From assembly GCA_041666645.1 (NCBI GenBank), contig JBAYGN010000001.1, forward strand, positions 31,625 through 95,624: 64,000 nucleotides of DNA, read 5' to 3'. Positions within the stretch are counted from its first letter, which is position 1; every line of letters starts with the position of its first letter. The notes under the pieces were generated by a model, which saw nothing but the letters and a program-made list of their open reading frames with translations, was not told where the DNA came from and made no database searches. The DNA comes from Minisyncoccota bacterium (GTDB taxonomy: Bacteria; Patescibacteriota; Minisyncoccia; Phycocordibacterales; UBA5272). This document shows positions 2,685 to 38,235 of this stretch, in pieces. The position numbers and the translations under genes are program-made.

Positions 2685-3578
2685 TTATTTTTCTTTTATT
2701 TCTTTCTCTGCCTTTTCCAAATCAACACCATCTTTGGTGACATCTTTCCATAAATCCCCTTTTTCTTCTATACGTTTAAAAATATTTTTAATTGTGAATT
2801 GAATTGGTCTCAAGCCGTGTTTTACTTCGCTCCATTCTAATGGTGTAGACACAGACGCCAAAGGCACTGACCGCAAAGAATACGGTGCGATAACAGTCTG
2901 CCCAATTGCGTTTCGTGATATGTCGATATGAATTTTATTTTTACGTTTTTCTGGAAAATGTTCTAGACTTACAATCTCAGGAATCTTTTCATTTACTTTA
3001 TGTGCAATTAAATCTGCGAACTCCCTTACTTTTTCGTACGAATATTTTGCGCCAGTTGGCACATAAATATGTAGCCCGTACTTTCCAGAAGTTTTGCAAA
3101 AGTTAGGAACATTAATTTTCTCGAGAAGTTTATGTATCTCAAGTGCAGTTGTTACAACATCGTCAAAAGAAGCGTCCTCTCCTCTGTCGATATCAAGAAT
3201 CATAAACTCTGGCTTTTCTAGTGACCCAACCTTTGAACTCCACGGATGCATTTCTATGCAGCCAATGTTTGCAAGGTAAAGCAAGGTCTCTTCGTTGTTA
3301 CAAACAACGTAGTTAATATCTTTTTCAGTTGTTTTCGCGCGAATGGTTTTTGTCTCTACGAAATCAGGCACGCTTTTCGGCTCTACATTTTTTTGATAAA
3401 AATGAATTCCTTCTATTCCTTCTGGTGTACGATAAAGAGAGCTTGGATAATTTTTCAAATACTTCAAAATAATCGGTGAAATATTTTTGTAATAATCAAC
3501 AAGGTCTGCTTTTGTATAACCATCATCTGGCCAAAGAACTTTGTCTAAATGTGTGAATTCTTGAGTGGTTTTTTTCAT
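2685..3578 (-). CDS. stand-alone LigD polymerase/primase-domain protein (NHEJ polymerase)
   Basis: 297 aa. Archaeo-eukaryotic primase-like LigD PolDom motifs are present: MILDIDRGEDASFDDVV (DxD metal site), SGKYGLHIYVP, HIDISRNAIGQTVIAPYSLR. Its start overlaps the stop of the upstream ligase gene by 4 nt (3575-3578), suggesting translational coupling. Confidence 0.85.
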   Translation of the reverse strand: MKKTTQEFTHLDKVLWPDDGYTKADLVDYYKNISPIILKYLKNYPSSLYRTPEGIEGIHFYQKNVEPKSVPDFVETKTIRAKTTEKDINYVVCNNEETLLYLANIGCIEMHPWSSKVGSLEKPEFMILDIDRGEDASFDDVVTTALEIHKLLEKINVPNFCKTSGKYGLHIYVPTGAKYSYEKVREFADLIAHKVNEKIPEIVSLEHFPEKRKNKIHIDISRNAIGQTVIAPYSLRSVPLASVSTPLEWSEVKHGLRPIQFTIKNIFKRIEEKGDLWKDVTKDGVDLEKAEKEIKEK

Positions 3579-4507
3579 GAGATTTTTGGTTTTACTATTT
3601 CCATTATCACTTCTGTTGCTTTTTTATCCTCACGCAACCCCAAAAATGCGGGGTGTCGCAACTCACCGCCAAGAGTCCATTCAGTGAACTTCACCTCACA
3701 AACAACTTCTGGTTTTACCCATGTGGTTGTTGATTCAAATTTTACTTTTTCAGTGAACGGACTTTTTTCAGCTTTAATTTTTGATAACTTCGCGTGAATA
3801 CTTTTCAAGTCCTCTGCGTCAAAACCGGTTCCAACGTGACCCACATAATGCCAAACTTTCCCATCATGCACCGCAAGAGCAAGTGAGCCGAAATATTTAC
3901 GTGACAAGCGTGGCTCTGTAAATCCAACGATAACAAACTCCTGTCGCAAACCAGTCTTAATTTTTAACCAATCGCGAGAACGTTTACCAGATTGGTACGT
4001 GCTATCGGCTCGTTTTGCCATTATTCCTTCTTCGCCAGCTTTTTTGGCTTCTGTAAAATAACGTGACCCGTTAGTCGTGCGATGCTCACTAAATCTAATA
4101 ACTGTATCATCAGGAATTATTTTTTTGAGAGCTTCTTTTCTTTCAAGCAAAGTTAAATCGCACATGCTCTTGCCATCCAAGGACATTATGTCAAAAACAT
4201 AATAATAAAGATTTGTTTTCTTTCGTAGAGCGTTTTGTAAAAGCTGAAACCTAGAACGTCCTTTATTGTCCAATGCAACTAATTCACCGTCTATTACAGC
4301 GTCGTGTTTAATTTTTTCTAAAGCTTTTACAATATCAATATATCTATCACTAACAATTTCACCATTACGCGAGTACAGAGTAACTTTTCCTTTTGCAATG
4401 GAAGCTATCACACGAAACCCATCCCATTTAGTTTCAAACACCCAAGCCTTGTCATCAAACGGCTTATCAGTAAGAGTGGCGAGCATTGGTTGGATTATTT
4501 TAGACAT
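3575..4507 (-). CDS. ATP-dependent DNA ligase (LigD ligase-domain type, adenylation + OB fold)
   Basis: 310 aa. Motif I KxDG is present (ETKWDGFRV), along with DGELV, EGIMAKR and WLKIK motifs typical of ATP-dependent ligases. Confidence 0.85.
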   Translation of the reverse strand: MSKIIQPMLATLTDKPFDDKAWVFETKWDGFRVIASIAKGKVTLYSRNGEIVSDRYIDIVKALEKIKHDAVIDGELVALDNKGRSRFQLLQNALRKKTNLYYYVFDIMSLDGKSMCDLTLLERKEALKKIIPDDTVIRFSEHRTTNGSRYFTEAKKAGEEGIMAKRADSTYQSGKRSRDWLKIKTGLRQEFVIVGFTEPRLSRKYFGSLALAVHDGKVWHYVGHVGTGFDAEDLKSIHAKLSKIKAEKSPFTEKVKFESTTTWVKPEVVCEVKFTEWTLGGELRHPAFLGLREDKKATEVIMEIVKPKIS

Positions 4508-4567
4508 TTTTTGATATCTTATCTATAACGTTAATGTTAACACCGAGCTGTTAAGTCTCCTATTAAT

Positions 4568-5299
4568 TTATATTTCAATAATAGAATAAATAAGTAAATG
4601 GTCAGAGGCAGTCGATTTTACGGCTCTACTCGATGCTATTTTTATATCCTTGGTAACAAAAATATAATCTAGCTTATATTTTAGTCCAGAAGGCTTACAC
4701 ACGAGACAGCCTTTAGGGTTTGTGCTCCATGTTAATTGCGTTCCCTTAACATCAGTATCCAGCATGGTATTTTTCATAACTTGTATACTTTTCTGTTCTG
4801 GTGTTGCATTAAAATCTCCCACAACGACAGAGTTTTCTTTGGGAACAACTTTTAATAAACTTTTTACCTGAGTGTCTTGTATTTTAAATGGTTTTAAATG
4901 CGTATGAACAAAGTGAACCGAAAAAATATGAAGGTTTTTATCGTTGACTTTAATTACTGCTTCCACGGCAGTTCTTTTACGAGTTTCTGACAAAAGATGG
5001 ATTTTAGTGTCTATGATTTCATGTTTGCTTATTATTGCGTTTCCTAAACCCATAGTTTTATCGGCGTTACTATCTCTTGAAAATTCCGATATAGTCTCCA
5101 TCGGAAAATGTGATGTTTCATATACCCATTTGTATCCTAATTCCTCGGCTATCTTTTTTGTAACATTAATTCTGTCACTATCCCGAATAACTTCTTGGAG
5201 ACCAATTACATCAGCATCAATAACTTTTAGGCGTTTGATAATTTCTTTTAAGTTTTCCCCTCCCCAAATATTCCAAGATACAATTTTTAGTTGTGACAT
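4568..5299 (-). CDS. endonuclease/exonuclease/phosphatase (EEP) family protein
   Basis: 243 aa. N-terminal KIVSWNIWGG...GLQEV and C-terminal GDFN...SDHLLI motifs are characteristic of the EEP fold. Confidence 0.75.
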   Translation of the reverse strand: MSQLKIVSWNIWGGENLKEIIKRLKVIDADVIGLQEVIRDSDRINVTKKIAEELGYKWVYETSHFPMETISEFSRDSNADKTMGLGNAIISKHEIIDTKIHLLSETRKRTAVEAVIKVNDKNLHIFSVHFVHTHLKPFKIQDTQVKSLLKVVPKENSVVVGDFNATPEQKSIQVMKNTMLDTDVKGTQLTWSTNPKGCLVCKPSGLKYKLDYIFVTKDIKIASSRAVKSTASDHLLIYSIIEI

Positions 5300-5867: not shown

Positions 5868-5935
5868 AGCTGATGAGGACTCGGTCACAAAACTACCTCG
5901 CTTTGATCTAAAACGAAGTTTGTACTATTCTGAGA
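5868..5935 (-). repeat. degenerate copy of the tRNA-linked junction unit (AGGACTCG|GTCACAAAAC...)
   Basis: Plus strand reads gctgatgAGGACTCGGTCACAAAACtacctcg...gaagtttgt. It has the same core-plus-hairpin-arm arrangement as 6174-6240 (ACAAACT/AGTTTTGT stem on the minus strand). Confidence 0.5.
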
Positions 5936-6169: not shown

Positions 6170-6337
6170 ATTTCTGGGGTACAGGGACTCGGTCACAAAA
6201 CTTCTCCTCGTAAACTCGTCGATAAAGTTTCGCGACCCCTATTCGAGTCCCTGCCGCAAGTGACGCAGGTCACTTGCTTTCCCCAGCAACACAAAGTGTA
6301 AGAACGCTTCGCGTACGATAAATGTGTGTTGCTGGGG
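6170..6337 (-). repeat. 168-nt direct repeat, distal copy (tRNA-Gln 3'-end copy + structured unit)
   Basis: Hand alignment to 12328..12495 gives 2 mismatches in 168 nt (6180 t/a, 6248 t/c). Contains CTGGGGTACAGGGACTCG (tRNA-Gln 3' 18 nt, 1 mismatch) and the hairpins described in the findings. Confidence 0.9.
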
Positions 6338-6486
6338 CTGTGGGACGAAGTTGGAACACTTTTAACTTTTAATTCTATTGAAAATTTAGGGAAACTAAGG
6401 CAGGTAATGTAATATCAAGTAAAAAAAGTGTTAGGATAATAATAAGTTGAAGGCTACTTTCTAGTTTTGCTAAAGATTATTTTATA

Positions 6487-8241
6487 TTACTTTTGCCATT
6501 TTTTAATTACCTCAGCAAATTTAGCTTCTTTCCACTCCTCTTTCCATTCTTCTAAATATTTAATGTCTCCTGATTTTGGTTTGTTTATACAAGCGTCTAT
6601 CTTTACAATTGAAGGCATAATTACGGAATCTCCAATCAATAAAGCTTCTCCTGCTTGTAAAATTGGTAAAGTTTCAGTGATAGAACCAAGGGTATCTGGT
6701 AGTAGGCGTTTTACATAATTTTGATCCTCAGGATTTGTTAATCTCATTGCGATAAAGTTACTACACTGCGAGAAAATAGTCTCGGATATTTCTGAAGGTC
6801 TTTGACTAACAATACATAGAGTTACTCCATACTTTCTTCCTTCTTTAGCAATACGTTCGATTGCTGTTCTTGAAGCTCTGTATTTTACTAGGTCACTTTT
6901 GGGTACATATTTGTGAGCTTCTTCATAAACAAGCAATAGAGGGGTTTCACTTTCAATTTCATCAGCAAGTATTTTTTTATAATAATAACCATATTCAAAC
7001 AACATTCTTGATATAAGTGATACTGTAATACTTAAAACTTCAAAAGGAATACCGGAAAGATCAATTATTGTTACATTAGATTTTTTTGTGGAATAACCAA
7101 GGAATTGTCTCAGTATTCCCTCAAGTGTTTCCGAAGAAACATCATCAAATAAAAATTTAAGACGGGGATTATTTCTTATTGTCTCTAGTCTTAAAATAAA
7201 TCTTTCGAAGTCACCATTAAAAGGCCCATTACTAGCTTTAGTTTCCTTGGCTGTGTTCGCAACACAAAAACTTACATCTTCTGAAAAGTAACTTTTCTTT
7301 CTATCTGTTATCAAGCTACCGTCTGATTTTTTCGGCATGCCTTCGCCTTCTAGTTTTCCTATAACTTCATTGTTTATATTTTTTATATATCTAATTACAT
7401 CATCTATCTTAAATTGAATAGGAGAATCAAAATAGATTTTACTTTCTGGAACCTGATCTTTTTTATCAAGAAGAGTATTTTGTATTTTTTTATTTTCTGT
7501 TACCGCATATCTAAATTGTGAGACTTGATTATGTGAATTTTCTTCATTACTTTCAATAAATAAATCTCCAAGTTCCTCACTATCAAATAACCAGTAAGGT
7601 ATTTTTATATTTCCTGAATTAATATAATTAGCATCAGGAAAAGCGTTTTTATACTCACCGTGGATATCAAAGATAACAATATGAGAGTTATTTAAACCTT
7701 GGTAGTCAGATTTTTTACCTTGTACAGCTTCTTGTAGCACCTTAGCAACAGTATGAGACTTTCCAGAACCAGTAGAACCGACTATGGCTATGTGTTTGTT
7801 AAAAAACTTATTACCGTCTACTGGAACATTTACTGTTTTATCTTGTGTTAATTTTGAAAAACAAAAACTAACATTTTCTTCTAGGTTATTGTATATTTTT
7901 TGTATGTCCTCTTTTGTCGCAGGTTCAGCAGATTTTGGTGGTATTGCTATATTATTTCCGCCTCTAATAAATTTATCAGTTGAATCAATAATACCTAAAG
8001 GAATTGCTTCAATCACATAAATCTTTTTTCTTTCGCCGTTTTCATCAGGCTCTTGTATTTCTATAGAAAAGTTTTCGATTATTGCTATAACTCTACAATT
8101 TTGATGATCAAATACTTTTAAATATGACCCAACAGCAAGGACCTCTCCTTCAACTTTGAATTTCTCAATATTATTTACCAATATCTTAATTTTATTTGGA
8201 AAAACTGAGACGACCTCAGCCATGTTTTTTTCATCAGTCAT
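6487..8241 (-). CDS. herA: HerA-like ATPase (HAS-barrel + FtsK/HerA P-loop, DUF87), partner of DUF4297
   Basis: 584 aa. N-terminal barrel region (VVSVFPNKIKILV...GSYLKVF), Walker A IVGSTGSGKSH, Walker B LLLVYEEAHKYV, CIVSQRPSEIS. Sits 3 nt downstream of the DUF4297 gene. Confidence 0.8.
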   Translation of the reverse strand: MTDEKNMAEVVSVFPNKIKILVNNIEKFKVEGEVLAVGSYLKVFDHQNCRVIAIIENFSIEIQEPDENGERKKIYVIEAIPLGIIDSTDKFIRGGNNIAIPPKSAEPATKEDIQKIYNNLEENVSFCFSKLTQDKTVNVPVDGNKFFNKHIAIVGSTGSGKSHTVAKVLQEAVQGKKSDYQGLNNSHIVIFDIHGEYKNAFPDANYINSGNIKIPYWLFDSEELGDLFIESNEENSHNQVSQFRYAVTENKKIQNTLLDKKDQVPESKIYFDSPIQFKIDDVIRYIKNINNEVIGKLEGEGMPKKSDGSLITDRKKSYFSEDVSFCVANTAKETKASNGPFNGDFERFILRLETIRNNPRLKFLFDDVSSETLEGILRQFLGYSTKKSNVTIIDLSGIPFEVLSITVSLISRMLFEYGYYYKKILADEIESETPLLLVYEEAHKYVPKSDLVKYRASRTAIERIAKEGRKYGVTLCIVSQRPSEISETIFSQCSNFIAMRLTNPEDQNYVKRLLPDTLGSITETLPILQAGEALLIGDSVIMPSIVKIDACINKPKSGDIKYLEEWKEEWKEAKFAEVIKKWQK

Positions 8242-8244
8242 AGA

Positions 8245-9393
8245 TTATGAAATTATTTTAATAATATCTTTAGTATGTTGTATGTAAAATTCTTTCAAGT
8301 CTTTTAAGTTCTCTTGAAGGTCAACTTTTGATAAAGTTGAAAACACATAAACTTCATCTAGTTTACCTTTTTTAAACAAAAATGGTAAAAACTCCTCTGA
8401 AATAATTTTAAATGCAACATTTGAAGAATCTTTGTATGTATCGACAATTAAATCTTGTATTCTAAACTTGTCTCCATTAAAATGTGTTCCATCACTAAAG
8501 TGCAATCCTTTATCTAAGAAACTTTGCTTTAGCAGGTTTAAACGAGTAGTGTCTATACCATATAAACAGATATAGGGTGAGGGTGATATATCTTTTCTAA
8601 AGTATTTATTTTTTATATTTGTAACTATTTCTAAAAGATTAGAATCCCTAATCGTGTCATCAATTTGAATGACTATCAATCTCTCTTTGCAAGGTATGTT
8701 AATCTTTTTAAATGTGAAGTATTCTTTTTTTAGATAACTTAAATATTTGTTGTTACTTAAAAACTTACAATAAGCCAATTCAAATATTACTTTTTCTTTT
8801 TTATTAACTAACGTTTTCAGTTTATTAAAGTTTATTAATCTTTGCTTCTTTTCTTTAATGATTGCTATGTCGAGTAAGTTAGATTTAAAAAGTGCATGAT
8901 AAACAGTAGCTTCCTCATCTGTTGTTAACTTGAATCCTGTTTTTATTTTTGAAATTAGATCTTTAAATTGTTGTTCAAAGTTATCAGAAAACTCTAGTAT
9001 AAAATGTTTTAAAAAATGCTCCTTATTTTTTAAGGTGTACTTATCTTTTTCAGTACCTAAAATTTTATCTAATTCTGAGATGTTTAGAAATTTTTTCTCA
9101 GGGGCTTTATCTTTAAAAAAAGCATATAACTTAAAAGTTTTCTTTTTATCTATGATGGACAGTTCTAGTAATTGTGTTAATGCTTTTTTGATACTTGAGG
9201 GGGTATACTTTTTAGATTCTTTATACTTAACTTGTATATAAAAATTACCTAGTCCAATATCTTGAATTTGTTCAATTTCTATATCTGAATGTGGGTTATT
9301 TAGTGCTTCTAAAATCGACTTATCAAATTGATAAGTAAAACCTTTTATTGCATAGTATCCACCATCATCTTGCTTTGATTTTGTTGTTCCCAT
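8245..9393 (-). CDS. DUF4297 (Cap4-like PD-(D/E)xK nuclease domain) protein of a DUF4297-HerA defence pair
   Basis: 382 aa. N-terminus reads GGYYAIKGFTYQFDKSILEAL...IEIEQIQDI...YIQVKYK. This matches the GFxYQ / E-x-QD / QVK signature of DUF4297 nucleases as I remember it. Gene order DUF4297 then HerA is the described arrangement. Confidence 0.7.
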   Translation of the reverse strand: MGTTKSKQDDGGYYAIKGFTYQFDKSILEALNNPHSDIEIEQIQDIGLGNFYIQVKYKESKKYTPSSIKKALTQLLELSIIDKKKTFKLYAFFKDKAPEKKFLNISELDKILGTEKDKYTLKNKEHFLKHFILEFSDNFEQQFKDLISKIKTGFKLTTDEEATVYHALFKSNLLDIAIIKEKKQRLINFNKLKTLVNKKEKVIFELAYCKFLSNNKYLSYLKKEYFTFKKINIPCKERLIVIQIDDTIRDSNLLEIVTNIKNKYFRKDISPSPYICLYGIDTTRLNLLKQSFLDKGLHFSDGTHFNGDKFRIQDLIVDTYKDSSNVAFKIISEEFLPFLFKKGKLDEVYVFSTLSKVDLQENLKDLKEFYIQHTKDIIKIIS

Positions 9394-9434
9394 TTTCTAG
9401 ATTCTACTCCTATTACAAGATAAATCTAGTCCTT

Positions 9435-9632
9435 TTATTTGTAACGCATTGGTCCTGATGTTGCATTTAAAGTATCTTCTAGGTTGGATGTGCTCTCTTC
9501 CTCTAATAAGATATTTTGGATCCGCTTTGGTTCACAAAACTTTTCTTTTATTTTATTAAAATTCGCAACTGTATAGCCAACTGCAAAAAACACAAAACAG
9601 AGAAGCACTATTTTTAGCTTTAGTGTATTCAT
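9435..9632 (-). CDS. small membrane/secreted hypothetical protein
   Basis: 65-aa ORF with one N-terminal hydrophobic helix (LKIVLLCFVFFAVGYTV), lying upstream of the DUF4297 gene. No obvious Shine-Dalgarno. Confidence 0.35.
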   Translation of the reverse strand: MNTLKLKIVLLCFVFFAVGYTVANFNKIKEKFCEPKRIQNILLEEESTSNLEDTLNATSGPMRYK

Positions 9633-9731
9633 GCGTAAGGTTCTTAAAAATTTGATAGCAAAACACCGCCATTGAAATAGGAGAACCTTACGAGTAGACC
9701 CACTCCATGGCGGAGCTTTAGTCGTAAGGTT
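9633..9731 (-). promoter_or_regulatory. leader with mutually exclusive hairpins (CGTAAGGTT x2 / AACCTTACG x1; CCGCCAT/ATGGCGG)
   Basis: Plus-strand copies: CGTAAGGTT at 9634-9642 and 9723-9731, with its complement AACCTTACG at 9684-9692; CCGCCAT at 9666-9672 and ATGGCGG at 9707-9713. One alternative pairs the 9 nt immediately 5' of the start codon (start codon at 9630-9632, minus strand). Confidence 0.35.
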
Positions 9732-9771
9732 TTTAAATTATGTTTTGTAGTCACATTGTATCAGTTATAAA

Positions 9772-10263
9772 TCAAAAGAGAGACCTAAGAATTCGGTCAC
9801 AAAACCATTTGTAACAATCTACAATTTCACCCGCTTTTTCTAGTCGTAAGAAATCTTCGCGAGTCTGTAATTCTTTGTAGTGCTGTGTAACTTTTGCACC
9901 GAGATGAAGCACTGCGTGCAAATGCGCCCCTGTCGTAGCCGAACCAGTGTTTCCAGAATGTGCGATTATATCCCCCTCTTTATATATTCCTTTTGTTGGT
10001 AATTCTTTTAGATGACATAGTTCAAGTCCCCAAGTTGTTCCTTCGTAATCAAATATAAAAACGCCGACGTTTCCTTTATATTTATTTACTTCAGTTTTGA
10101 ACATCTCACCATCACAAGGTGCAAATATTGGTGTACCGACAGCAACCTTAAAATCTGTTCCGACGTGTGTGCCTGTTTTTGGATAATTTTTACGGTCTGG
10201 AAAAGCACCGAATGGGTTGGTGGAGTTGTAGGATTGTTTGAAGTTGAGGAGGGGGAGGTGCAT
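9772..10263 (-). CDS. M23/LytM-family metallopeptidase domain protein (no signal peptide)
   Basis: 163 aa. HxxxD motif (GTHVGTDF) and HxH motif (GAHLHAVLH). The last ~8 codons run into the junction-motif remnant GAATTCGGTCACAAAAC (9789-9805). Confidence 0.7.
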   Translation of the reverse strand: MHLPLLNFKQSYNSTNPFGAFPDRKNYPKTGTHVGTDFKVAVGTPIFAPCDGEMFKTEVNKYKGNVGVFIFDYEGTTWGLELCHLKELPTKGIYKEGDIIAHSGNTGSATTGAHLHAVLHLGAKVTQHYKELQTREDFLRLEKAGEIVDCYKWFCDRILRSLF

Positions 10264-10272
10264 AATATAAAT

Positions 10273-12168
10273 TTATATATAATCTCTTATATCCACGTCA
10301 ATATTTTGCCCCTGAGCCCTTTTAGTAAGAGATATCCATATAGAGTTTCCACCAGACCCTCTTTTATCAACGTTAAAAAATTGTTTTTCAGATTTTTTAA
10401 TAGAAATTTTAATTACAGATACAACTTGATTATCATTTCTTAAAATAACTGGCTCAAATTCTATAAGACTATTAAACTTATCTTGTGTGCAATCTGTTAT
10501 TTGTTTAAGATTATCAAGTATTTGCAATCGAACAGTATCAAGTGTTTTATTTTGTATTCTAAATTCTTGCCCTATATCAAAAAAAGTTAAACCGTTTTTA
10601 ACAATAAGTAAATTTTTTATTTCTTCTCTTTTAATAGCCTCTGGGTTTTCTACTATTCCAACAATTAAAGTTCCCCCTTCCGTGTTAAGCATAGCCAAAA
10701 TAACCTTTAATATTTTTTCAAATATCTTTTTTTTAATTGAAGAATCAGTTTCTTCATCACGATATTCTTGTTCTAATGGAGTATAAAAACTTGATTTCCA
10801 TTCAATCTTTTCATTTTCTTGTATTACAAAATCTTTAATTTTATCCCAATCATCTTCAATATAATATTTATTTAAAATCTCATGAACATCAACAATCCAT
10901 TGATTTAATTCATGAACGATAACATTTAAAGACCATCTTGTATCCTTAGCATTATTAATTTCTTCGAGAACAGAAAAAGTTTTTATTGAAATTAAAAAAA
11001 TTTTATTAGTCCATTCATTATCAGTTTCAGTGATTTCTTTATTATTAAAAGCTGAAAAATTTTTATGTGAATATTCAGATAATTCTTTCTTAATTTCAGT
11101 TGCCAGTTTTGCTTTTTCTGAAACAATTTCAAAAAAATTTTTACCGTCTTGATAGTTAAAGCCAGAGCATATTTTTTTAAAGAAAAAAATTAAATTTCTT
11201 TCATTTTTTTGTATAAAAATATCAAAAAAACTTGTTATATCTTTTGAGGTATTTCTGTAGTAATGTTCAATACTTTCATTAAGATCATTAGATGTTACGT
11301 AAATTAAATCAAGAGATTTTGATAAATTAAATGACTCCCCTTTATTCTCATTAATTATTTTTTTAAAACTGTTTTCAATTACTGGTCTTATAATTAAAGA
11401 TAAAAAAGTTATACCAGCTAAAGACCTACTTGTTTTTAGGTTTAAAAATAAAAAATTATCATCTAGTTTAACTGGGAATTTTGAGTCATAATTTTGATTA
11501 AAATGAAATCTTACATCCCAAGCCACCTTTTCAAGAAAAAAACAAAGTTTTATAAAATTATTTTCATGTGCTGGTAGGTGTTTTAAAATATTTCTTAGAA
11601 TATCTGTAGTATTTTTTCTTAGAAATTCTATACTATTTTTAGTAATTGATTTATAGTCTATCGCAATACCAAAGAAAGCAAGCATCACTGCGGTATTTAA
11701 AAAAATTAATTTATCAAAATTGGATTCTTCTTTTTGCAAAATGCTTATTTTTTGATTTTTACTTATTAGTTCTATTAATATTTTTATAAAATTTTCATTA
11801 CGAAGAGTCGCGTTAAAAACAAGAACATATACATTTGTTTTAGAATATAATTCATGTGTGAAGTCTTCATCTAAACCATCAAAAATAGAAGAAAGAATAC
11901 ATGTGCAATCAAAAAAATCTTTACTTGTTTTTGCTTGTTCTATTTTTTTTATTAAATCTGTAATAGCTCCAGCTGTAGATTTTTTAATAAAATGTTTATA
12001 GTGATCTTCATTTTTCAAATCAGCATACATTTCATCAAAAGAAGACCATTTTTTATTAAGATTGCTCATAAAGATAAGGTATTTAAAAAGTATATCTTTA
12101 TTTAACCAATACAACAATTTTTGAAATACTAAATTAAAACCCTTACACAACAAGAGGTTTTTTAGCAT
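10273..12168 (-). CDS. hypothetical protein with C-terminal AlbA_2/Schlafen-like domain
   Basis: 631-aa ORF; the real start may be Met35 at 12066. The C-terminal ~170 aa begin EKIEWKSSFY...KILKVILAMLNTEGGTLIVGIVE, which resembles the E-x-K ... N-T-x-GG-x-L-x-x-G signature of AlbA_2 domains. The N-terminal ~440 aa are helical with no motif I recognise. Confidence 0.5.
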   Translation of the reverse strand: MLKNLLLCKGFNLVFQKLLYWLNKDILFKYLIFMSNLNKKWSSFDEMYADLKNEDHYKHFIKKSTAGAITDLIKKIEQAKTSKDFFDCTCILSSIFDGLDEDFTHELYSKTNVYVLVFNATLRNENFIKILIELISKNQKISILQKEESNFDKLIFLNTAVMLAFFGIAIDYKSITKNSIEFLRKNTTDILRNILKHLPAHENNFIKLCFFLEKVAWDVRFHFNQNYDSKFPVKLDDNFLFLNLKTSRSLAGITFLSLIIRPVIENSFKKIINENKGESFNLSKSLDLIYVTSNDLNESIEHYYRNTSKDITSFFDIFIQKNERNLIFFFKKICSGFNYQDGKNFFEIVSEKAKLATEIKKELSEYSHKNFSAFNNKEITETDNEWTNKIFLISIKTFSVLEEINNAKDTRWSLNVIVHELNQWIVDVHEILNKYYIEDDWDKIKDFVIQENEKIEWKSSFYTPLEQEYRDEETDSSIKKKIFEKILKVILAMLNTEGGTLIVGIVENPEAIKREEIKNLLIVKNGLTFFDIGQEFRIQNKTLDTVRLQILDNLKQITDCTQDKFNSLIEFEPVILRNDNQVVSVIKISIKKSEKQFFNVDKRGSGGNSIWISLTKRAQGQNIDVDIRDYI

Positions 12169-12202: not shown

Positions 12203-12290
12203 GCTGGGAGATAGGGATTCGGTCACAAAATCAACTCCTTCGTCGCAGATGATTTTCCGACCCGTATTCGAGTCCCGACGTACGACACGC
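12203..12290 (-). repeat. diverged copy of the tRNA-linked hairpin unit with variant acceptor strand
   Basis: Minus strand reads GGGACTCG-AATACGG-GTCGGAAAATCA-TCTGCGACGAAGGAGT-TGATTTTGTGACC-GAATCCC-TA-TCTCCCAGC. It has the same layout as the 168-nt unit (T-like stem, capped hairpin, CGACGA..GGAG loop). Confidence 0.6.
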
Positions 12291-12297
12291 AGACCAT

Positions 12298-12317
12298 GTG
12301 GGACTCGGTCACCAAAC
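12298..12317 (-). repeat. junction fragment GGGACTCG|GTCACCAAAC
   Basis: Short copy of the core/junction motif lying between the two fuller units. Confidence 0.5.
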
Positions 12318-12327
12318 ATATACTTTT

Positions 12328-12495
12328 ATTTCTGGGGAACAGGGACTCGGTCACAAAACTTCTCCTCGTAAACTCGTCGATAAAGTTTCGCGACCCCTAT
12401 TCGAGCCCCTGCCGCAAGTGACGCAGGTCACTTGCTTTCCCCAGCAACACAAAGTGTAAGAACGCTTCGCGTACGATAAATGTGTGTTGCTGGGG
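12328..12495 (-). repeat. 168-nt direct repeat, tRNA-proximal copy (structured tRNA-like unit)
   Basis: See 6170..6337. The right end (12490-12495) overlaps the 3' end of tRNA-Gln. The left end (12332-12349) is an exact second copy of the tRNA's 3' 18 nt, CTGGGGAACAGGGACTCG. Confidence 0.9.
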
Positions 12496-12560
12496 AACAG
12501 GGACTCGAACCCCAATACCATCCTCCAGAGGGATGTGTCCTACCATTAGACGATTCCCCA
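12490..12560 (-). tRNA. tRNA-Gln (anticodon CTG)
   Basis: Minus strand: TGGGGAA TC GTCT AATGGTA GGAC A CATCC CTCTGGA GGATG GTAT TGGGG TTCGAGT CCCTG TTCCCCA G. Cloverleaf with 7-bp acceptor stem. CCA is not encoded. Confidence 0.85.
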
Positions 12561-12648: not shown

Positions 12649-14307
12649 TTATTTTAACGAAGCCCTTACAAGTTGAATATCTGTGTAAGGATACTTCCCT
12701 TTTAGGTGTTCAAATACTGGCGTTAATTTATGAGTTTCTAGTTCTTTAAATGCCTTTGCGATTTTCTCTCTGTCGTTCTTTTTCGGTAGAACGTGTTTAA
12801 GTTCTACGTCTTCCTTTAATTCTACTAATTTTTCAATGTGCCCAATAATTGTAGCCTCGGATAGATTGCGACGCTCTGCAATTTCTTTTATAGAAAGTTT
12901 TTCTTTTAACATTTCTTGAGTCTTTGCATGTGACGGAACTTTCACTTCTATTTCTTCCGATTCTACGTCATCTAATTCTTCTAATTCGCCACCAGAAGAT
13001 GTTAAGAACTTTTCATGCAATTCTTTTAATTGTTTTTCGGAATACTTTTCAATGGCGTTTTCGGCTTGGTCGCTTTTTGCGCGAAAATTAATATCTGCTT
13101 CGCGCACTTCTTCGGCAATCATTAAAGCTTGAGGATTGAACCCCTTCAAATAAAGACCGTCCATAGACTTTAAACGAGAAAGAGCTACATATCCCTGACC
13201 AGATGTAAATGCGCGACTGAGGTCAATTTCTGCCTTATCAAGCGTCATTCCTTGGCTCTTGTGAACAGTTATAGCCCACGCGAGTTTGATGGGAAGTTGG
13301 CTTATTTCAGCTTTTACTTTGCCGTCCTCCTCTATTCTCCAAGTATCTACTTTGATGGTTATTTTTTTACCATTTGTAAGTTCAACAACCGGACTTCCGT
13401 CTGCTGTAAAATCTGCAACTATCCCCATAGAGCCATTTACATAGAGTCTCTCTTGGCTGTTTTTTATACAAATAACTTTGGCGCCAACTTTTAATTGTAA
13501 AGTTTCTTCAGCGAGACAGTTATTTTTAAGTGATTCCAGAATAGAAGCTTTACCTTTTGTAATCATTTCATAAGTGTGTACTTCGCCTTCTATTTCTTCA
13601 AAAGCTTTTCTGTTTATTTGATCAACATTTTCATTATGAGTGTAGAGCTTGATGTGATCATCGCTTTGTATTTTTTTGTTTGCGTCTTTTAAATATTCAA
13701 AATGCTCTTCTTCGACTTCACCGCTACGAATGGCGTTTAAAATATCTGACAACTTGTCGTCGTCTTGGCGGAACTGCTCTGTTAAATAGCAAACAACAGG
13801 CTTCGCCTCTTGCCACGCTCGTGAAGTAAAAGCAAACACACCTTCACTTTCATAAGTATCCCCAATGCGCGTTATTGGTGGAAGCTGAAAGAAGTCTCCA
13901 GTGAACACAACTTGCATACCACCAAAAGGTTTCTCATTTCGACGCATATGCTTTGCAGTCTTATCAAGCATGTCTACAAAGGATGCATGAAGCATTGATA
14001 TTTCATCTATGATTAAAACTTGTGTCTCATTCCATCTTTTGTATAGAGCTGGCTTTTCTTCCATTGCATCTAAGTCGTATGCATGAAGTTTTTGTTTAAT
14101 ACCAATACCACTCCACGCGTGAATAGTTGTTCCGCCGATATGAGTCGATGCGATACCAGTTGAAGCCGTGACCGCATACTTCACGCCGTGTTTTTTAAGA
14201 TATGAAACATAATCGCGGATGGCGTATGACTTACCAGCACCAGCCGCTCCGGTGAGAAAAGTGGTGTGTCCAAGTTTGAGAATTTGAAGAGCTGTTTTTT
14301 GGGTCAT
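12649..14307 (-). CDS. PIF1/RecD-family ATP-dependent DNA helicase with C-terminal HTH
   Basis: 552 aa. Walker A LTGAAGAGKSY, LIIDEISM (Walker B), FTGDFFQLPP, TVHKSQGMTLD, and a C-terminal helix-turn-helix tail (SIKEIAERRNLSEATIIGHIEKL). Confidence 0.8.
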   Translation of the reverse strand: MTQKTALQILKLGHTTFLTGAAGAGKSYAIRDYVSYLKKHGVKYAVTASTGIASTHIGGTTIHAWSGIGIKQKLHAYDLDAMEEKPALYKRWNETQVLIIDEISMLHASFVDMLDKTAKHMRRNEKPFGGMQVVFTGDFFQLPPITRIGDTYESEGVFAFTSRAWQEAKPVVCYLTEQFRQDDDKLSDILNAIRSGEVEEEHFEYLKDANKKIQSDDHIKLYTHNENVDQINRKAFEEIEGEVHTYEMITKGKASILESLKNNCLAEETLQLKVGAKVICIKNSQERLYVNGSMGIVADFTADGSPVVELTNGKKITIKVDTWRIEEDGKVKAEISQLPIKLAWAITVHKSQGMTLDKAEIDLSRAFTSGQGYVALSRLKSMDGLYLKGFNPQALMIAEEVREADINFRAKSDQAENAIEKYSEKQLKELHEKFLTSSGGELEELDDVESEEIEVKVPSHAKTQEMLKEKLSIKEIAERRNLSEATIIGHIEKLVELKEDVELKHVLPKKNDREKIAKAFKELETHKLTPVFEHLKGKYPYTDIQLVRASLK

Positions 14308-16538: not shown

Positions 16539-17420
16539 CTATAGATTTTGTTCAGCTTCAATAAAAGCATCAATATTACCTTTTTCTAAAACACTTTCGA
16601 CATCACTGGTTTCATAATCTGTGCGATGATCTTTTACCATTTTGTAAGGATGTAAGACATAAGAACGAATTTGATTCCCCCACTCAATTTCTGTTGTTTT
16701 ACTAATTTGTCTACCTTCAATTTCAGCTTTTCTTTTTTCTTCTTCTAATTTGTATAACTTAGCCGAAAGGATTTCTAGCGCTTTTTGTTTATTTTGGTCT
16801 TGTTGACGTTCAGTTGCTACATGCACCGCAATGTTTGTAGGAATGTGTACAACGCGCACGGCTGTTTCGCGCTTATTTACATTTTGACCGCCTGGTCCAC
16901 TTGATTTAGATGTTTCAATACGAATTTCGTCTTGTGGTATTGCTTTACGCTCAGTGGCTGGAATAACTGGCAATATTTCTACCATTGCAAAAGATGTGTG
17001 ACGTTTAGCATTTGCATTAAATGGAGAAATACGAACAAGGCGATGCACGCCAGATTCATTTTTTAAAAGACCGTATGCGTTTTTTCCAATTACTTCTAAT
17101 GTTATATTCCTATACCCTCCGTGGTCATTTTTATTATCGTGAAGAATTGAATATGAAAACCCTTTATTTGAAAAATATGCTTCATACATACTGAGTAACA
17201 TTCTTGCGAAGTCTTCACTATCATCTCCTCCAGCGCCAGCGAGAATAGTCATGATAGCGTTTCCTTTATCTAGAGCATTTACCCCGTCACGTAAATCCTT
17301 TAACTCTTTTAGTCTCTTAATTACTTCTTGAGCTTTTTCTTTGTCATTCCAGAAAGAAACATTGTTCATGTTATCCTCGAGTTCTGCGATTTCAAGATTT
17401 ATATCCATGCTAGTTTCCAT
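16539..17420 (-). CDS. prfB: peptide chain release factor 2 (short N-terminus, no frameshift site seen)
   Basis: 293 aa. SPF motif (RISPFNA) specific for RF2, and GGQ motif (SSGPGGQNVNK). Confidence 0.85.
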   Translation of the reverse strand: METSMDINLEIAELEDNMNNVSFWNDKEKAQEVIKRLKELKDLRDGVNALDKGNAIMTILAGAGGDDSEDFARMLLSMYEAYFSNKGFSYSILHDNKNDHGGYRNITLEVIGKNAYGLLKNESGVHRLVRISPFNANAKRHTSFAMVEILPVIPATERKAIPQDEIRIETSKSSGPGGQNVNKRETAVRVVHIPTNIAVHVATERQQDQNKQKALEILSAKLYKLEEEKRKAEIEGRQISKTTEIEWGNQIRSYVLHPYKMVKDHRTDYETSDVESVLEKGNIDAFIEAEQNL

Positions 17421-17785: not shown

Positions 17786-17842
17786 ATGAACCCCTCCTGT
17801 TATTTCAGATTAACTAAAATTATCTTTTCTGTCTAGGGTTAA

Positions 17843-17988
17843 AGTTATATGCAGAATCGGTCACAACTTCTCCTTACTTATTTTTTGAGCCAAAAGCAAC
17901 CTTCGCGAGCTCTCCTCCACAAGGAAACTATCGTTTCCCTGACACCCTTCAAAACCTTCTGTCTCAAAAAGCTTCGCTTATTTTTTTG
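17843..17988 (-). repeat. degenerate second unit of the tRNA-Thr-linked array
   Basis: Ends (minus sense) with GGAGAAGTTGTGACC-GATTCTGC (plus 17851-17875). Contains GAGACAGAAGG, a GAA-looped hairpin remnant and TTGGCTCAAAAAATAAG remnants of the proximal unit. Confidence 0.55.
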
Positions 17989-18153
17989 AGCCAGAAGGCA
18001 GAATCGGTCACGAAACTTCTCCTCGCATGCTCGTCGATAAAGTTTCGCTACCCCGTATTCGATTCTGTAAGACGTGAAGCAGTTCACGTCTACCTAAATT
18101 TGATAAAACAAATTTAGGCCTTCTGGCTCAAAAAAGCTTCGCTTATTTTTTTG
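17989..18153 (-). repeat. structured tRNA-like unit downstream of tRNA-Thr(CGT)
   Basis: Minus strand: GCCAGAA-GG-CCTAAATTTG(TTTTATC)AAATTTAGG-T-AGACGTGAA(CTGC)TTCACGTCT-TA-CAGAATCG-AATACGG-GGTAGCGAAACTT-TATCGACGAGCATGCGAGGAG-AAGTTTCGTGACC-GATTCTG-CC-TTCTGGC-T. A ~45-nt direct repeat (17962-18006 vs 18127-18171) includes the tRNA 3' end. Confidence 0.8.
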
Positions 18154-18226
18154 AGCCAGAAGGCAGAATCGAACTGCCGACCTTCTCGTTACGAGTGAGA
18201 TGCTCTACCAACTGAGCTATTCTGGC
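18154..18226 (-). tRNA. tRNA-Thr (anticodon CGT)
   Basis: Minus strand: GCCAGAA TA GCTC AGTTGGTA GAGC A TCTCA CTCGTAA CGAGA AGGTC GGCAG TTCGATT CTGCC TTCTGGC T. One A-C mismatch closes the anticodon stem. Confidence 0.85.
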
Positions 18227-18231
18227 TTTGG

Positions 18232-18304
18232 AGCCGTTGGCCAGAATCGAACTGGCGACCTTTTCCTTACCATGGAAATGCTCTACCAACTGAGCTACAA
18301 CGGC
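18232..18304 (-). tRNA. tRNA-Thr (anticodon GGT)
   Basis: Minus strand: GCCGTTG TA GCTC AGTTGGTA GAGC A TTTCC ATGGTAA GGAAA AGGTC GCCAG TTCGATT CTGGC CAACGGC T. Confidence 0.9.
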
Positions 18305-31277: not shown

Positions 31278-32105
31278 TTAATGCTCCCCGTGTTCTTTTT
31301 TAAGAACCAAAGAGTAGTACACCGTCACGAGCGCGACGAATACGATAGATTGAACAACTCCAACGAGTAATCCCATTCCCATCCAAATAGCTGGAACAGC
31401 AACAGAAAAAGCGCCGAGCAAAATAACTGTTAGAACTTCGTGAGCAAACATGTTTCCAAAAAGTCGAAGTGAGAGTGATAATACTTTTGCGAGTTCACTG
31501 ACAATTTCAATTAAACCCACGAAGAATCCGACAATGGAAGTCATCCCTTCTCCAAAACTTTTCTTGAACCCCTTAATAACTTGTTTAATTTGAATAAAAT
31601 GTGAAAGATAGCCAAATACTCCCTGTTCACGTATACCTATAACCTGCATTGTTACAACCACAGCAAGAGCTAAGCCGAATGTAGTATTAAAATCTGTTGT
31701 AGCTCCGCGAAAAAGTGGGAAATGTTCCCCGTCAATGGTTATATAAAAACTACCAATCAAAGGAAACATCGGAAGTAAGTTCGCAATAATTAAATATGTC
31801 ATTATTGCCCCGACATATGGCACAATTTCCTTTGCGCGTTCTTTGTTTCCAACAATTGAAGCAATAAATGAATCAACCATCTCATAAAATATTTCCAACA
31901 GGTGTTGAAATTTATTTGGAATCAATTTAGAACGCGATACGGAGATACAAAGTATGATAAAAATCAATGTTATAAACATTGTCGTAATCGTTGATGTGGC
32001 GATAGTTAAAGGTCCAACATTGCCAAGCGTTGGAGATATGATTGTAGGAATTTCTTCGCGAACATGAAGAACAGTAGATTGTTCGACTGTGTGAATATCT
32101 GCCAT
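31278..32105 (-). CDS. atpB: Fo ATP synthase subunit a
   Basis: 275 aa polytopic protein with the conserved LSLRLFGNMFAHE motif. Confidence 0.9.
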   Translation of the reverse strand: MADIHTVEQSTVLHVREEIPTIISPTLGNVGPLTIATSTITTMFITLIFIILCISVSRSKLIPNKFQHLLEIFYEMVDSFIASIVGNKERAKEIVPYVGAIMTYLIIANLLPMFPLIGSFYITIDGEHFPLFRGATTDFNTTFGLALAVVVTMQVIGIREQGVFGYLSHFIQIKQVIKGFKKSFGEGMTSIVGFFVGLIEIVSELAKVLSLSLRLFGNMFAHEVLTVILLGAFSVAVPAIWMGMGLLVGVVQSIVFVALVTVYYSLVLKKEHGEH

Positions 32106-37330: not shown

Positions 37331-38235
37331 TTATTTCAAATACTTTTTAATATTAATTTTATGTTCTTCAAATGTTTTAGAGTAGTGCATTGTACCATCT
37401 TTACCTGTTATATAGTATAGATAAGGGGTATCAATTGGATGAAATACTGCATTTAATGCTACTAGTCCAGGATTATTTATCGGTATACTTGGTACCCATT
37501 TTATTTTATAAGTTTCTGGTGCGGCGTCCACTTGAAGAGGCATACCTTTTTGTAATCGTTTAATAAGTATTCCTGCAACGATTTGCATGTCTTCTTTAGT
37601 TTTTGCTTCCCCTTCCAAAATAGCTGCAAGAGAAATTATTTCATCTTTATTTTTAAACTCTGGAGGGATTGGTAAATCGTAAAAGGTTTCTAAATATTTT
37701 TTGTCGAAAGTGGTTGTCATTTTATCTACTATTCGCACTTCTGTCATTGATGGCAATAGGAAGTAAGTTGAAGGAAAAAGTTTACCATTTGATTTATTTT
37801 TAAAACCTCATATTCAAACACACTTATGTCTATATTTGGTAATACACCGTGTACAAGTACTGCGATTTCGTGCGTTGTACTACCTTCTGGAATGGTTACG
37901 CTAATAAGTGGCGTGTCTGGATTTCCAGAGACGAATTTTCTAACTACATACCCAAGAGTTCGTGGTCTATCAAACATATAACCACCTAATTGAATATTTT
38001 TATCCCCACCCAAAAATGAAACCCCTGCGCGAAACCAGAGCGAATAATCAATATAGCCTTCTTTTTCTAATCGCGCACTAACACTACGTAAACTCTCCCC
38101 TTCTTCTACTATAAAATTTTTACCGATTGGGAAATTTCTAGGTATAGTAAAAGTAATGTAAGAAAAATATCCTAAAAATAAAACAACAATAGAATATATA
38201 GTTATGCGAATAACTAGTGGTTTAAATGAATACAT
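37331..38235 (-). pseudogene. mltG: endolytic murein transglycosylase MltG (YceG-like), split by a frameshift
   Basis: ORF 37744..38235 encodes the TM anchor plus N-terminal half (ITIPEGST-like VTIPEGSTTHEI). ORF 37331..37756 encodes the C-terminal half (LQVDAAPETY..., NPGLVALNAV). In the second frame the conserved GKLFPSTYFLLP continues upstream to a TAA. The frames must switch within the A/T-rich tract at ~37788-37806. Confidence 0.7.

Follow-up and report, generated by a model that had tools for sequence, protein, structure and literature searches.

Hairpin-bearing units with arms antisense to the adjoining tRNA, a candidate class of insertion elements in Patescibacteria

The 64-kilobase (kb) stretch of DNA analyzed here (the window; positions 31,625 to 95,624 of contig JBAYGN010000001.1, from a Minisyncoccota bacterium) carries on its minus strand a pair of tRNA genes, tRNA-Thr(GGU) at 18229-18304 and tRNA-Thr(CGU) at 18154-18226 (start at 18153 in one of the two calls), both recognized by ARAGORN and Rfam, with a sigma-70-like promoter at 18350-18322 upstream of tRNA-Thr(GGU), the first of the pair. 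Directly behind tRNA-Thr(CGU) lies a small, protein-less unit with hairpins and two arms that are antisense to the 3′ end of the tRNA. Related units follow tRNA-Gln(CUG) (12490-12560, minus strand; ARAGORN, Rfam), which has a promoter-like site at 12632-12604 (minus strand). An earlier note, made from the letters of the window alone, had written out the minus-strand sequence after tRNA-Thr(CGU), and that reading is exact. The finding is broader than the note could see, as the units belong to an uncatalogued family that may consist of insertion elements addressed by base pairing.

Read in the direction of the tRNA, hence on the minus strand throughout, the Thr unit begins directly 3′ of tRNA-Thr(CGU) with a spacer hairpin, H0 (CAAAAAAATAAGCGAAGCTTTTTTGA, 18128-18153), which has a GCGAAGC mini-hairpin at its apex and a stem that runs on into the pairing between the acceptor 3′ strand and the first antisense arm. 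This arm, g1 (GCCAGAAGG, 18119-18127), is the complement of CCTTCTGGC, that is, of the acceptor 3′ strand plus 2 nucleotides (nt) of the T stem. After an extra hairpin (CCTAAATTTG-TTTTAT-CAAATTTAGG, 18093-18118), which has a counterpart in no other unit among those folded, come P2, a hairpin of 9 base pairs (bp; AGACGTGAA-CTGC-TTCACGTCT, 18070-18091) whose CTGC loop is family-wide, and the second antisense arm, g2 (CAGAATCGAA, 18058-18067), the complement of TTCGATTCTG, which comprises the T loop and the T-stem 3′ strand. The conserved core (18006-18057) consists of the linker TACGGG and the P4 hairpin (GGTAGCGAAACTT...AAGTTTCGTGACC), which contains invariant G·U pairs, and its GTGACC is followed by a downstream duplicate of the tRNA 3′ end (GATTCTGCCTTCTGGCT, 17989-18005). 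The two arms, GCCAGAAGG (18127-18119) and CAGAATCG(AA) (18067-18058), together give, in reverse complement, the last 19 nt of tRNA-Thr(CGU); the stretch that they match, ~19 nt at its 3′ end, is TTCGATTCTGCCTTCTGGC. The downstream copy agrees with the tRNA at 19 of 19 nt in the Thr unit and at 18 of 19 in the first Gln unit, and other loci are alike. The inserted DNA is enclosed by a direct repeat of the tRNA 3′ end, with the tRNA restored, as is characteristic of tRNA-integrating islands.

The 168 nt behind tRNA-Thr(CGU) have a minimum free energy of -70.4 kcal/mol, compared with -37.6 +/- 3.7 for shuffled sequences (z = -8.85; 0 of 200 shuffles equal it). They fold as the earlier note had drawn them, into a four-way junction resembling a cloverleaf, but this cloverleaf is not universal, as the acceptor-side arm is lacking in some members. 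The degenerate second Thr unit that the note had placed at 17843-17988 (minus strand) is real. It consists of a repeated H0 plus GACAGAAGG, a rearranged stretch and then AAGTTGTGACCGATTCTGC, it has a match to the family profile at 17852-17910 (E = 0.006), and it is a rearranged remnant.

The inner module that the note had seen in both Gln and Thr units is indeed common to them: 0.01 occurrences of the 19-mer GCGAAACTTTATCGACGAG are expected in the window and three are present, each on the minus strand (6215, 12373 and 18030), and a looser pattern additionally recovers a degenerate Gln unit. Gln unit 1 (12332-12489, minus strand), directly behind tRNA-Gln(CUG), comprises an H0 with GCGAAGC, g1 (CTGGGGAA, 12444-12437), P2 (12435-12414), g2 (CAGGGGCTCGAA), the core and the copy of the tRNA end (CGAGTCCCTGTTCCCCAG). 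The degenerate Gln unit 2 (12204-12331, minus strand) is 5′-truncated and carries another module variant, GGGTCGGAAAATCATCTGCGACGAAGGAGTTGATTTTGTGACC, which differs from that of unit 1 and is the one found at L073 and L110 (loci of the family are designated by L numbers). Gln unit 3 (6174-6352, minus strand) lies 6 kb beyond unit 1, with a decayed tRNA-Gln 3′ end (TTCGTCCCACAGCCCCAG) in front of it. Units 1 and 3 are identical over ~190 nt save two differences, indicating recent copying or gene conversion. An isolated fragment of a unit 3′ end, GCGAGGTAGTTTTGTGACCGAGTCC, is found at 5876-5910 (minus strand). The shared spacer mini-hairpin with its GAA loop, also pointed out in the note, is present in the Gln and Thr units of the window and in their closest relatives, such as L129; the heptamer stands at the apex of the spacer hairpin at 18136-18142 and 12464-12470 (minus strand) as well as in L129, and related C-GAA-G triloops cap many P4 hairpins. 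GCGAAGC forms an unusually stable mini-hairpin in single-stranded DNA.

Across the family, the element measures ~120-150 nt plus the duplicated tRNA end and encodes no protein. Its parts follow one another 5′ to 3′ on the tRNA-sense strand in the order tRNA end, H0, g1, AG, P2, CG(N), g2, TA(C)GGG, P4, GA, an optional insert and the duplicate. H0 is a hairpin that in many loci forms a perfect A-tract/stem/T-tract structure resembling a terminator, while g1, antisense to the acceptor 3′ strand, extends the H0 stem by its pairing and is lacking in some members. The short linkers AG and CG(N) precede, respectively, the 9-bp hairpin P2 with its CTGC loop and the arm g2, which is antisense to the T-stem 3′ strand and T loop and ends in TCGAA. 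TA(C)GGG leads into P4, with a conserved base (GGUCGCG/UGUGACC) and a variable apex, and GA completes the conserved 3′ end GTGACCGA. The CTGC loop and the AATA(C)GGG linker, which the note had seen in the Gln and Thr units alike, are nearly invariant in the family alignment. Past GTGACCGA there may be 2 nt (AC in L002, L030, L046, L060 and L070; AT or TA in L032 and L090) or a 14-nt mini-hairpin (L023, L075) before the duplicate, a copy of tRNA positions ~59-73. The insert always stands before the tRNA-derived part, which suggests that CGA is the element's own and that the duplicated target spans approximately positions 59-73.

A scan of one genome per species with the pattern TCGAATA-N0-1-GGG-N25-55-GTGACCGA gave at least 118 stretches, about two-thirds of which are chance matches in genomes of high G+C content. 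Among the matches listed, ~37 units have the true core (33 from the scan and 4 in the window), and all of them come from Saccharibacteria, Parcubacteria/Paceibacterota, Nomurabacteria, Gracilibacteria or metagenome-assembled genomes of low G+C content; among these matches, the family is confined to the Patescibacteria (the candidate phyla radiation, CPR). A same-strand tRNA lies upstream of 26 of the 37, ending 63-91 nt before TCGAATA in 24 cases, and in those 24 the sequence past GTGACCGA repeats the 3′ end of that very tRNA. In the pattern-selected loci, a profile search returned 57 matches at 35 loci, 32 of them directly behind a same-strand tRNA and representing at least 19 anticodon species, and 33 of the 61 tRNA genes in these loci carry a unit. 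The orientation of the unit is that of the tRNA in every case seen. A metagenome scan with the exact 19-mer added four informative loci (Asp, Cys and one without a tRNA). Some units have a different inner module (type B: L002, 4983-5165, plus strand, behind tRNA-Cys, and L077, 5495-5690, plus strand), with H0, g1, P2 with its CTGC loop, g2 and the duplicated tRNA end as usual but ...GAGAAAYTTYTGYGACGRCAAAARTTTACTTGT... in the module. Profile matches restricted to P2 in L050, L070 and L129 may be further type B units, in which case the occupied fraction of tRNA genes may be underestimated. Units also lie within ~250 nt of a contig end in L038, L067, L075, L095, L101 and L011, and an independent assembly of the same contig as the window (L121) ends at a HerA gene just before Gln unit 3; such repeats evidently break metagenome assemblies.

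No existing catalogue searched contains the family. At gathering thresholds, the 4227 models of Rfam match only four tRNAs in the window; an E-value scan of 17800-18160 gave E = 0.11 at best, with every match far under its gathering score; and the units match no Rfam family, including those of tRNA-like RNAs, tmRNA and ribozymes. Pattern scans of IMG/VR returned nothing, or two chance matches in high-G+C contigs with neither tRNA genes nor profile matches, BLAST searches of INPHARED (GenBank phages) and of PLSDB plasmids found no unit, and the literature searched holds no earlier description.

The two hairpins are maintained by compensatory change. In an alignment of 34 sequences, 89.5% of the cells are paired, compared with 35-47% in slid controls, and covariation reaches 0.45 where shuffles give 0.18 (0 of 500). 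Double compensatory changes occur in 7 of the 9 pairs of P2 and 5 of the 11 pairs of P4, and one G·U pair of P4 is invariant (34 of 34). The mismatches in P4 number 54 of the G·T type against 3 of the A·C type, indicating that the structure exists only on the tRNA-sense strand.

The arms follow the resident tRNA beyond the window too, a match on which the note had made its reading depend: across at least 19 anticodon species, they agree with their own tRNA at an average of 12.8 of 16 positions, compared with 6.5 for non-cognate tRNAs. In the window itself, both the tRNA and its downstream copy are matched by the arms; across the family, it is the resident tRNA that they fit. The six bases of g2 beside TCG form Watson-Crick pairs with tRNA positions 59-64 in 128 of 138 cases, versus 93 of 138 with the downstream copy. 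The same can be seen in individual loci, where arm pairing with the tRNA and with the downstream copy amounts, respectively, to 8+9 and 3+4 (L002), 9+16 and 8+5 (L027), 10+12 and 3+5 (L032), 9+14 and 8+5 (L073), and 9+12 and 4+5 (L090). Among mismatches of the arms with the downstream copy, A·C (24) and G·T (21) are about equally frequent, indicating that the pairing with this copy, from which the cloverleaf would be built, is not under selection; the better fit of g2 to the tRNA than to the duplicate likewise indicates that the cloverleaf is not the conserved pairing. The part of g2 facing the T loop also tracks the tRNA: where a tRNA-Asp has the T loop TTCAAAT, the unit has GGGATTTGAA and GTGACCAAATCCC. 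The idea that the arms are copies of the tRNA 5′ strands was rejected, as the T-stem 5′ strand of tRNA-Gln is UGGGG where g2 has CAGGG, and the pairing of g1 takes in the discriminator base and the trailer as well.

Units come and go independently of the neighboring genes, as emerges from the kind of comparison that the note had called for. In three related Saccharibacteria, a tRNA-Met stands beside the same convergent gene. Behind it there is no unit and only the native terminator in L077; one unit in L023, with a native-like trailer (AAGAATA.AAAA) after the downstream copy; and two units with different module variants in L072. The two aligned sites, those of L023 and L072, have a native-type terminator hairpin past the downstream copy. 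For the window's own Thr and Gln loci, an exact-protein look-up of RF2 returned the same contig alone, and so no close relative for a comparison of presence and absence. Arrays are frequent (four profile matches in L001, five in L002 and six in L072), and the distal copies of the arrays in the window are degenerate. Module lineage is uncoupled from tRNA identity. When P4 is clustered at 85% identity or above, one variant is found behind eight tRNA species (Leu, Lys(CTT), Lys(TTT), Val(TAC), Val(GAC), Met, Ile and Pro) and the variant of the window behind Met, Lys, Thr, Gln and Cys; conversely, different variants occur at the same tRNA for Arg(GCG), Gly(GCC), Lys(CTT), Leu(TAA) and Val(TAC).

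The DNA that separates a tRNA with its unit from a further unit is accessory. In the window, the cargo between Gln units 2 and 3 (6487-12168, minus strand) encodes a 631-amino-acid (aa) protein with a sub-threshold Pfam match to Schlafen/AlbA_2, an M23 peptidase, a 65-aa open reading frame (ORF) and, distally, a DUF4297-HerA anti-phage defense pair (6487-9393, minus strand; PADLOC E = 1e-36 and 1e-242); the 631-aa and M23 genes have no PADLOC match, and there is no recombinase in this cargo. Elsewhere the cargo includes GmrSD (L033), a PRTase-NADAR protein (L030), a methyltransferase (L072) and YecM (L077). Decayed tRNA 3′ ends stand before distal units in the window and in L077, as if islands had integrated separately and displaced an older tRNA end, together with its unit, outward. 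The tRNA-Asp of L077 (4746-4818, plus strand) has an aberrant T arm, GGGGTCAGCACCC, and the units farther downstream are addressed to the canonical TTCAAATCCC; the arrival of the YecM island probably entailed the replacement of this tRNA or of its 3′ half.

No protein travels with the units. None of the ~58 window ORFs scanned is a recombinase, transposase or reverse transcriptase, and an all-against-all BLAST of 428 ORFs from the family loci revealed as shared only housekeeping neighbors (DUF2238, RluA, IF-2, GatA and aminoacyl-tRNA synthetases); in L002 and L038, units are followed by a 384-aa ORF that resembles a membrane protein. A prophage-like block adjoins a unit in L130 (5894-12846, minus strand) and in L046. 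It encodes a large serine recombinase, both terminase subunits (large and small) and an N6/N4 DNA methylase, and has a weak, sub-threshold MuF-like match; the arms of the unit address a tRNA that is no longer adjacent, and the recombinase is near no other unit of the family loci. Next to this block lies a second conserved non-coding element, E2 (GCACGAGAWGGGTCGAAAC...CCTTGTGGGG..AATGAACC, with TGTGTCACTTTTGTCAC ahead of it in three of four loci), which is found at ~5640-5760 of L001 (minus strand), 6211-6300 of L033 (plus strand) and 12967-13060 of both L046 and L130 (plus strand), just upstream of tRNA-less distal units and after cargo or the prophage-like block. E2 matches no Rfam family.

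The match of the arms across tRNAs, the uncoupling of lineage from tRNA and the gain and loss of units favor an insertion element with a base-pairing address. We give roughly an even chance to the proposal that the units are non-autonomous insertion elements for tRNA 3′ ends, addressed by base pairing and working as folded single-stranded DNA. Such an element would bring along H0, its own terminator-like hairpin, and one or two address segments, invariably g2 and in most cases g1 too, which are complementary to the tRNA in its T loop, T-stem 3′ strand and acceptor 3′ strand; insertion of the element would keep the tRNA intact and duplicate approximately positions 59-73 downstream of it. We infer that the tRNA-sense strand would act single-stranded, most likely as DNA. 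Its arms would pair either with the target copy that the element itself carries, when excised or at a junction, or with a tRNA gene whose tRNA-sense strand is exposed during transcription or replication. An enzyme from another part of the genome, for which an HUH/Y1-type single-strand transposase or a structure-specific recombinase is a candidate, would take hold of the element at P2 and P4, and changed arms would lead to a changed tRNA target. The terminator-like H0 of many loci, together with promoter-like sites that in the window lie only upstream of the tRNAs and never within the units, speaks against a dedicated transcript and for a role at the level of DNA.

As to whether such insertion is programmable or adaptive, which the note had left as alternatives, programmable insertion is the better supported, and adaptive writing of the arms from the tRNA during insertion has no evidence in its favor; selection on guide variants, by analogy with IS110 or IS608, would yield the same pattern of arms. 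In its fullest form, the proposal would be a natural system of programmable, nucleic-acid-guided insertion, in which a ~150-nt scaffold with two hairpins and an antisense address of 9-20 nt directs a folded single strand to any tRNA 3′ end by means of an enzyme encoded elsewhere in Patescibacteria. This stronger claim is offered tentatively, at well below even chances; it might be seen as the 4-nt DNA-guide principle of IS608 with a long guide, or as an analogue of bridge RNA unlinked from its protein. If the arms do set the target, the result would be a compact, retargetable insertion system with a ~100-nt scaffold plus address, and the tRNA species occupied, at least 19, would be so many natural "programmings", a data set from which the rules and the enzyme could be sought.

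Several points weigh against the insertion-element proposal. The sample of loci was chosen by the pattern itself. The arm g1 is lacking in L001, L074, L072 and L077, so an address of ~20 nt is not universal and only the ~9-12 nt of g2 are. Neither an enzyme nor an excised or circular form or fresh insertion was seen in the 64-kb window and the neighborhoods of the units. As far as its sequence tells, the duplicated tRNA end would fit conservative recombination with a core of ~15 nt, a duplication by staggered cuts or a copy borne by the element alike, and the heterogeneous junction past GTGACCGA would not obviously be expected of a precise recombinase. Tandem copies could partly stem from unequal crossing-over between direct repeats. 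Finally, H0 is not convincing as a terminator in the window, where the units are probably co-transcribed with the tRNAs and might have a role as RNA.

This last point leads to the rival that survives best, in which the unit would be co-transcribed by read-through and fold, as a structured non-coding RNA of a tRNA-like or cis-acting kind, into a three- or four-way junction. It might be released by RNase P or RNase Z through mimicry of the acceptor and T arms, and act as a decoy, regulator or processing element, its spread being secondary. The strong covariation with an invariant G·U on the tRNA-sense strand, the constant co-orientation of unit and tRNA and the very stable fold are all as such an RNA would have them, and so are the division of the arms by P2 near the boundary of T stem and acceptor, as in a tRNA body, and the situation in the window, with promoter-like sites only upstream of the tRNAs and no clear terminator between tRNA and unit. 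In many loci, however, a terminator-like hairpin precedes the unit and leaves ~10-15 nt before P2 for a promoter, which also weakens the family of tRNA-templated RNAs that the note had entertained, there being no room for a promoter. Moreover, the pairing with the downstream copy that the junction would require decays without wobble bias, g1 is lacking in some members, and no Rfam family matches. Presence is polymorphic at orthologous tRNAs, and arrays in which distal copies are degenerate and variants are mixed suggest selfish turnover. On balance, an RNA function as the primary one is unlikely.

The units could instead be attachment (att) remnants, left by integrase-bearing islands or prophages that had entered tRNA 3′ ends and have since been deleted, with the module as an attP arm. 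Direct repeats of the tRNA end, tandem arrays and defense cargo are classic for integrative elements such as tycheposons (doi 10.1101/2020.12.28.424599), and the family has DUF4297-HerA, GmrSD, NADAR and methyltransferase cargo between tRNAs and distal units, decayed tRNA ends before distal units (window, L077) and, beside one unit (L130, L046), the prophage-like block with its serine recombinase. Yet the 32 of 57 matches that stand directly behind a tRNA are cargo-less, and the pattern-defined units have a near-constant spacing, which independent precise deletions cannot explain. The covarying stems and strand-specific G·T pairs bespeak a folded single strand rather than protein-binding arm sites in duplex DNA, and an attP arm leaves the antisense arms unexplained. 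There is no integrase beside the units or in the window, and the module is absent from the viral and plasmid collections searched. We therefore regard att remnants as quite improbable.

That the unit benefits the host as a trailer module, terminating or insulating tRNA operons and homogenized by gene conversion, with the complementarity of the arms as a by-product of stem extension, is very improbable: H0, g1 and the acceptor 3′ strand do form one long hairpin, and units often stand between tRNAs and downstream genes, but g2, P2, P4, the duplicated end, the degenerate tandem copies and the conservation of the core across CPR phyla would go unexplained, and the empty orthologous site already has a terminator of its own. 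Two further identities were rejected: tmRNA or a tRNA-like RNA, considered for a likeness of TCGAATACGGGGTCGCGAAAC to the 5′ part of tmRNA (no ARAGORN tmRNA, no Rfam match); and a self-cleaving ribozyme or a tRNA intron of the bulge-helix-bulge type (no Rfam match, and a one-sided 7-nt bulge in place of a bulge-helix-bulge). tRNA-primed reverse transcription from a site resembling a primer-binding site would not fit well, as the complementarity enters the genomic trailer, not CCA, and no reverse transcriptase is present.

The window is otherwise an ordinary CPR chromosome, with trmD, rpsP, RNase R, SMC, the atp operon, leuS, clpB, infB, prfB and ftsEX. Between the Thr units and an RF2-like release factor (16539-17420, minus strand) lies a 106-aa ORF without a Pfam match; the release factor itself has only 293 aa, and its PCRF match begins at profile position 97, so that its N-terminal part would be either missing or encoded differently. 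Some 0.6 kb past the unit fragment at 5876-5910, with an opposite-strand 150-aa ORF between, a LigD primase-polymerase, an ATP-dependent DNA ligase and an Exo/endo/phosphatase nuclease are clustered (2685-5299, minus strand), either as core genes or as older cargo of the tRNA-Gln island. A YceG/MltG homologue is split into two overlapping ORFs (37331-38235, minus strand) that match profile positions 2-86 and 219-275, reflecting a frameshift or a sequencing error.

For the biology of the CPR, the insertion-element proposal, if true, would account for an unannotated repeat that fills a large share of tRNA trailers, marks hot spots of defense genes and breaks assemblies. Even under the more conservative readings, the units would be a widespread, strongly structured RNA or recombination site that is missing from Rfam.

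Among known systems, tRNA-targeting integrative elements, including tycheposons, share with the units the insertion at the 3′ part of a tRNA that stays intact, the direct repeat of its end, the outward shift of older insertions by successive ones and the defense or accessory cargo. Unlike them, the units are ~150 nt long, encode nothing, mostly lack cargo and have no linked integrase; their hairpins covary, one of their strands bears antisense copies of the target, and one lineage occurs at many tRNAs. Casposon-type insertion by Cas1 at tRNA 3′ ends involves terminal inverted repeats, a Cas1 casposase and a target duplication of 14-15 bp. The duplicated segment at the units (~59-73, ~15 nt) is of similar size, but no terminal inverted repeats are visible and the window has no Cas1. 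Integron attC sites and the attP of CTX phage likewise conserve structure over sequence, are strand-selective and mimic a duplex target with a folded strand, and attC sites also form arrays, as the units do, in some cases with an ORF between sites (L011, L072 and the Gln locus of the window). In contrast to integrons, the units come with neither IntI nor attI (there is no tyrosine recombinase in the window), are anchored at tRNAs and mostly have no ORF; their ends are AG-P2 and GTGACCGA, without the R/L boxes GTTRRRY, and their cargo looks like separate island integrations. The tRNA-like mimics, of the mascRNA type or as external guide sequences for RNase P, have in common with the units the acceptor- and T-like helices around a continuous 3′ strand, one hairpin of the unit replacing the D and anticodon arms. 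They differ in that the unit has no T loop, which is closed into a helix with P4 inserted, the pairing that makes the mimic is not conserved and no tRNA-like family of Rfam matches.

Bridge RNAs and seekRNAs of IS110/IS1111 are encoded beside a DEDD recombinase within the insertion sequence and pair with both target and donor. The units resemble them in that segments covarying with the target are set into a conserved scaffold, such that changed segments would mean retargeting, but there is no DEDD (RuvC-like) recombinase in the window or beside the units, transcription of the unit is doubtful, and its single address matches a sequence that is duplicated on both sides. Nor was a Y1/HUH transposase found in the 64-kb window or next to any unit, or a conserved tetranucleotide cleavage motif identified in the units, in both of which they are unlike the IS200/IS605 group. 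Yet they resemble this group, together with PATE and REP/BIME-RAYT, in having hairpins specific to a single strand (P2 and P4 covary; P4 has 54 G·T versus 3 A·C), and they resemble it in topology, with target, linker, g1 and P2, then g2, P4 and the target copy. IS608 is reported to read its cleavage and target sites by short DNA guides beside the foot of a hairpin, and its target can be reprogrammed by changing the guide (PMC3201880, PMC5934647); another paper describes high-copy, protein-less derivatives of the IS200/IS605 type that are mobilized by an enzyme encoded elsewhere (PMC8266576). In the units, g1 and g2 flank P2, precede P4 and pair with the flanking tRNA end over 9-20 nt, so that the guides comprise ~9-20 nt of Watson-Crick pairing as against the 4 nt of IS608, and the target is the tRNA 3′ end on both sides. 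In mechanism, IS608 and its non-autonomous relatives are the nearest precedent for the units as proposed here.

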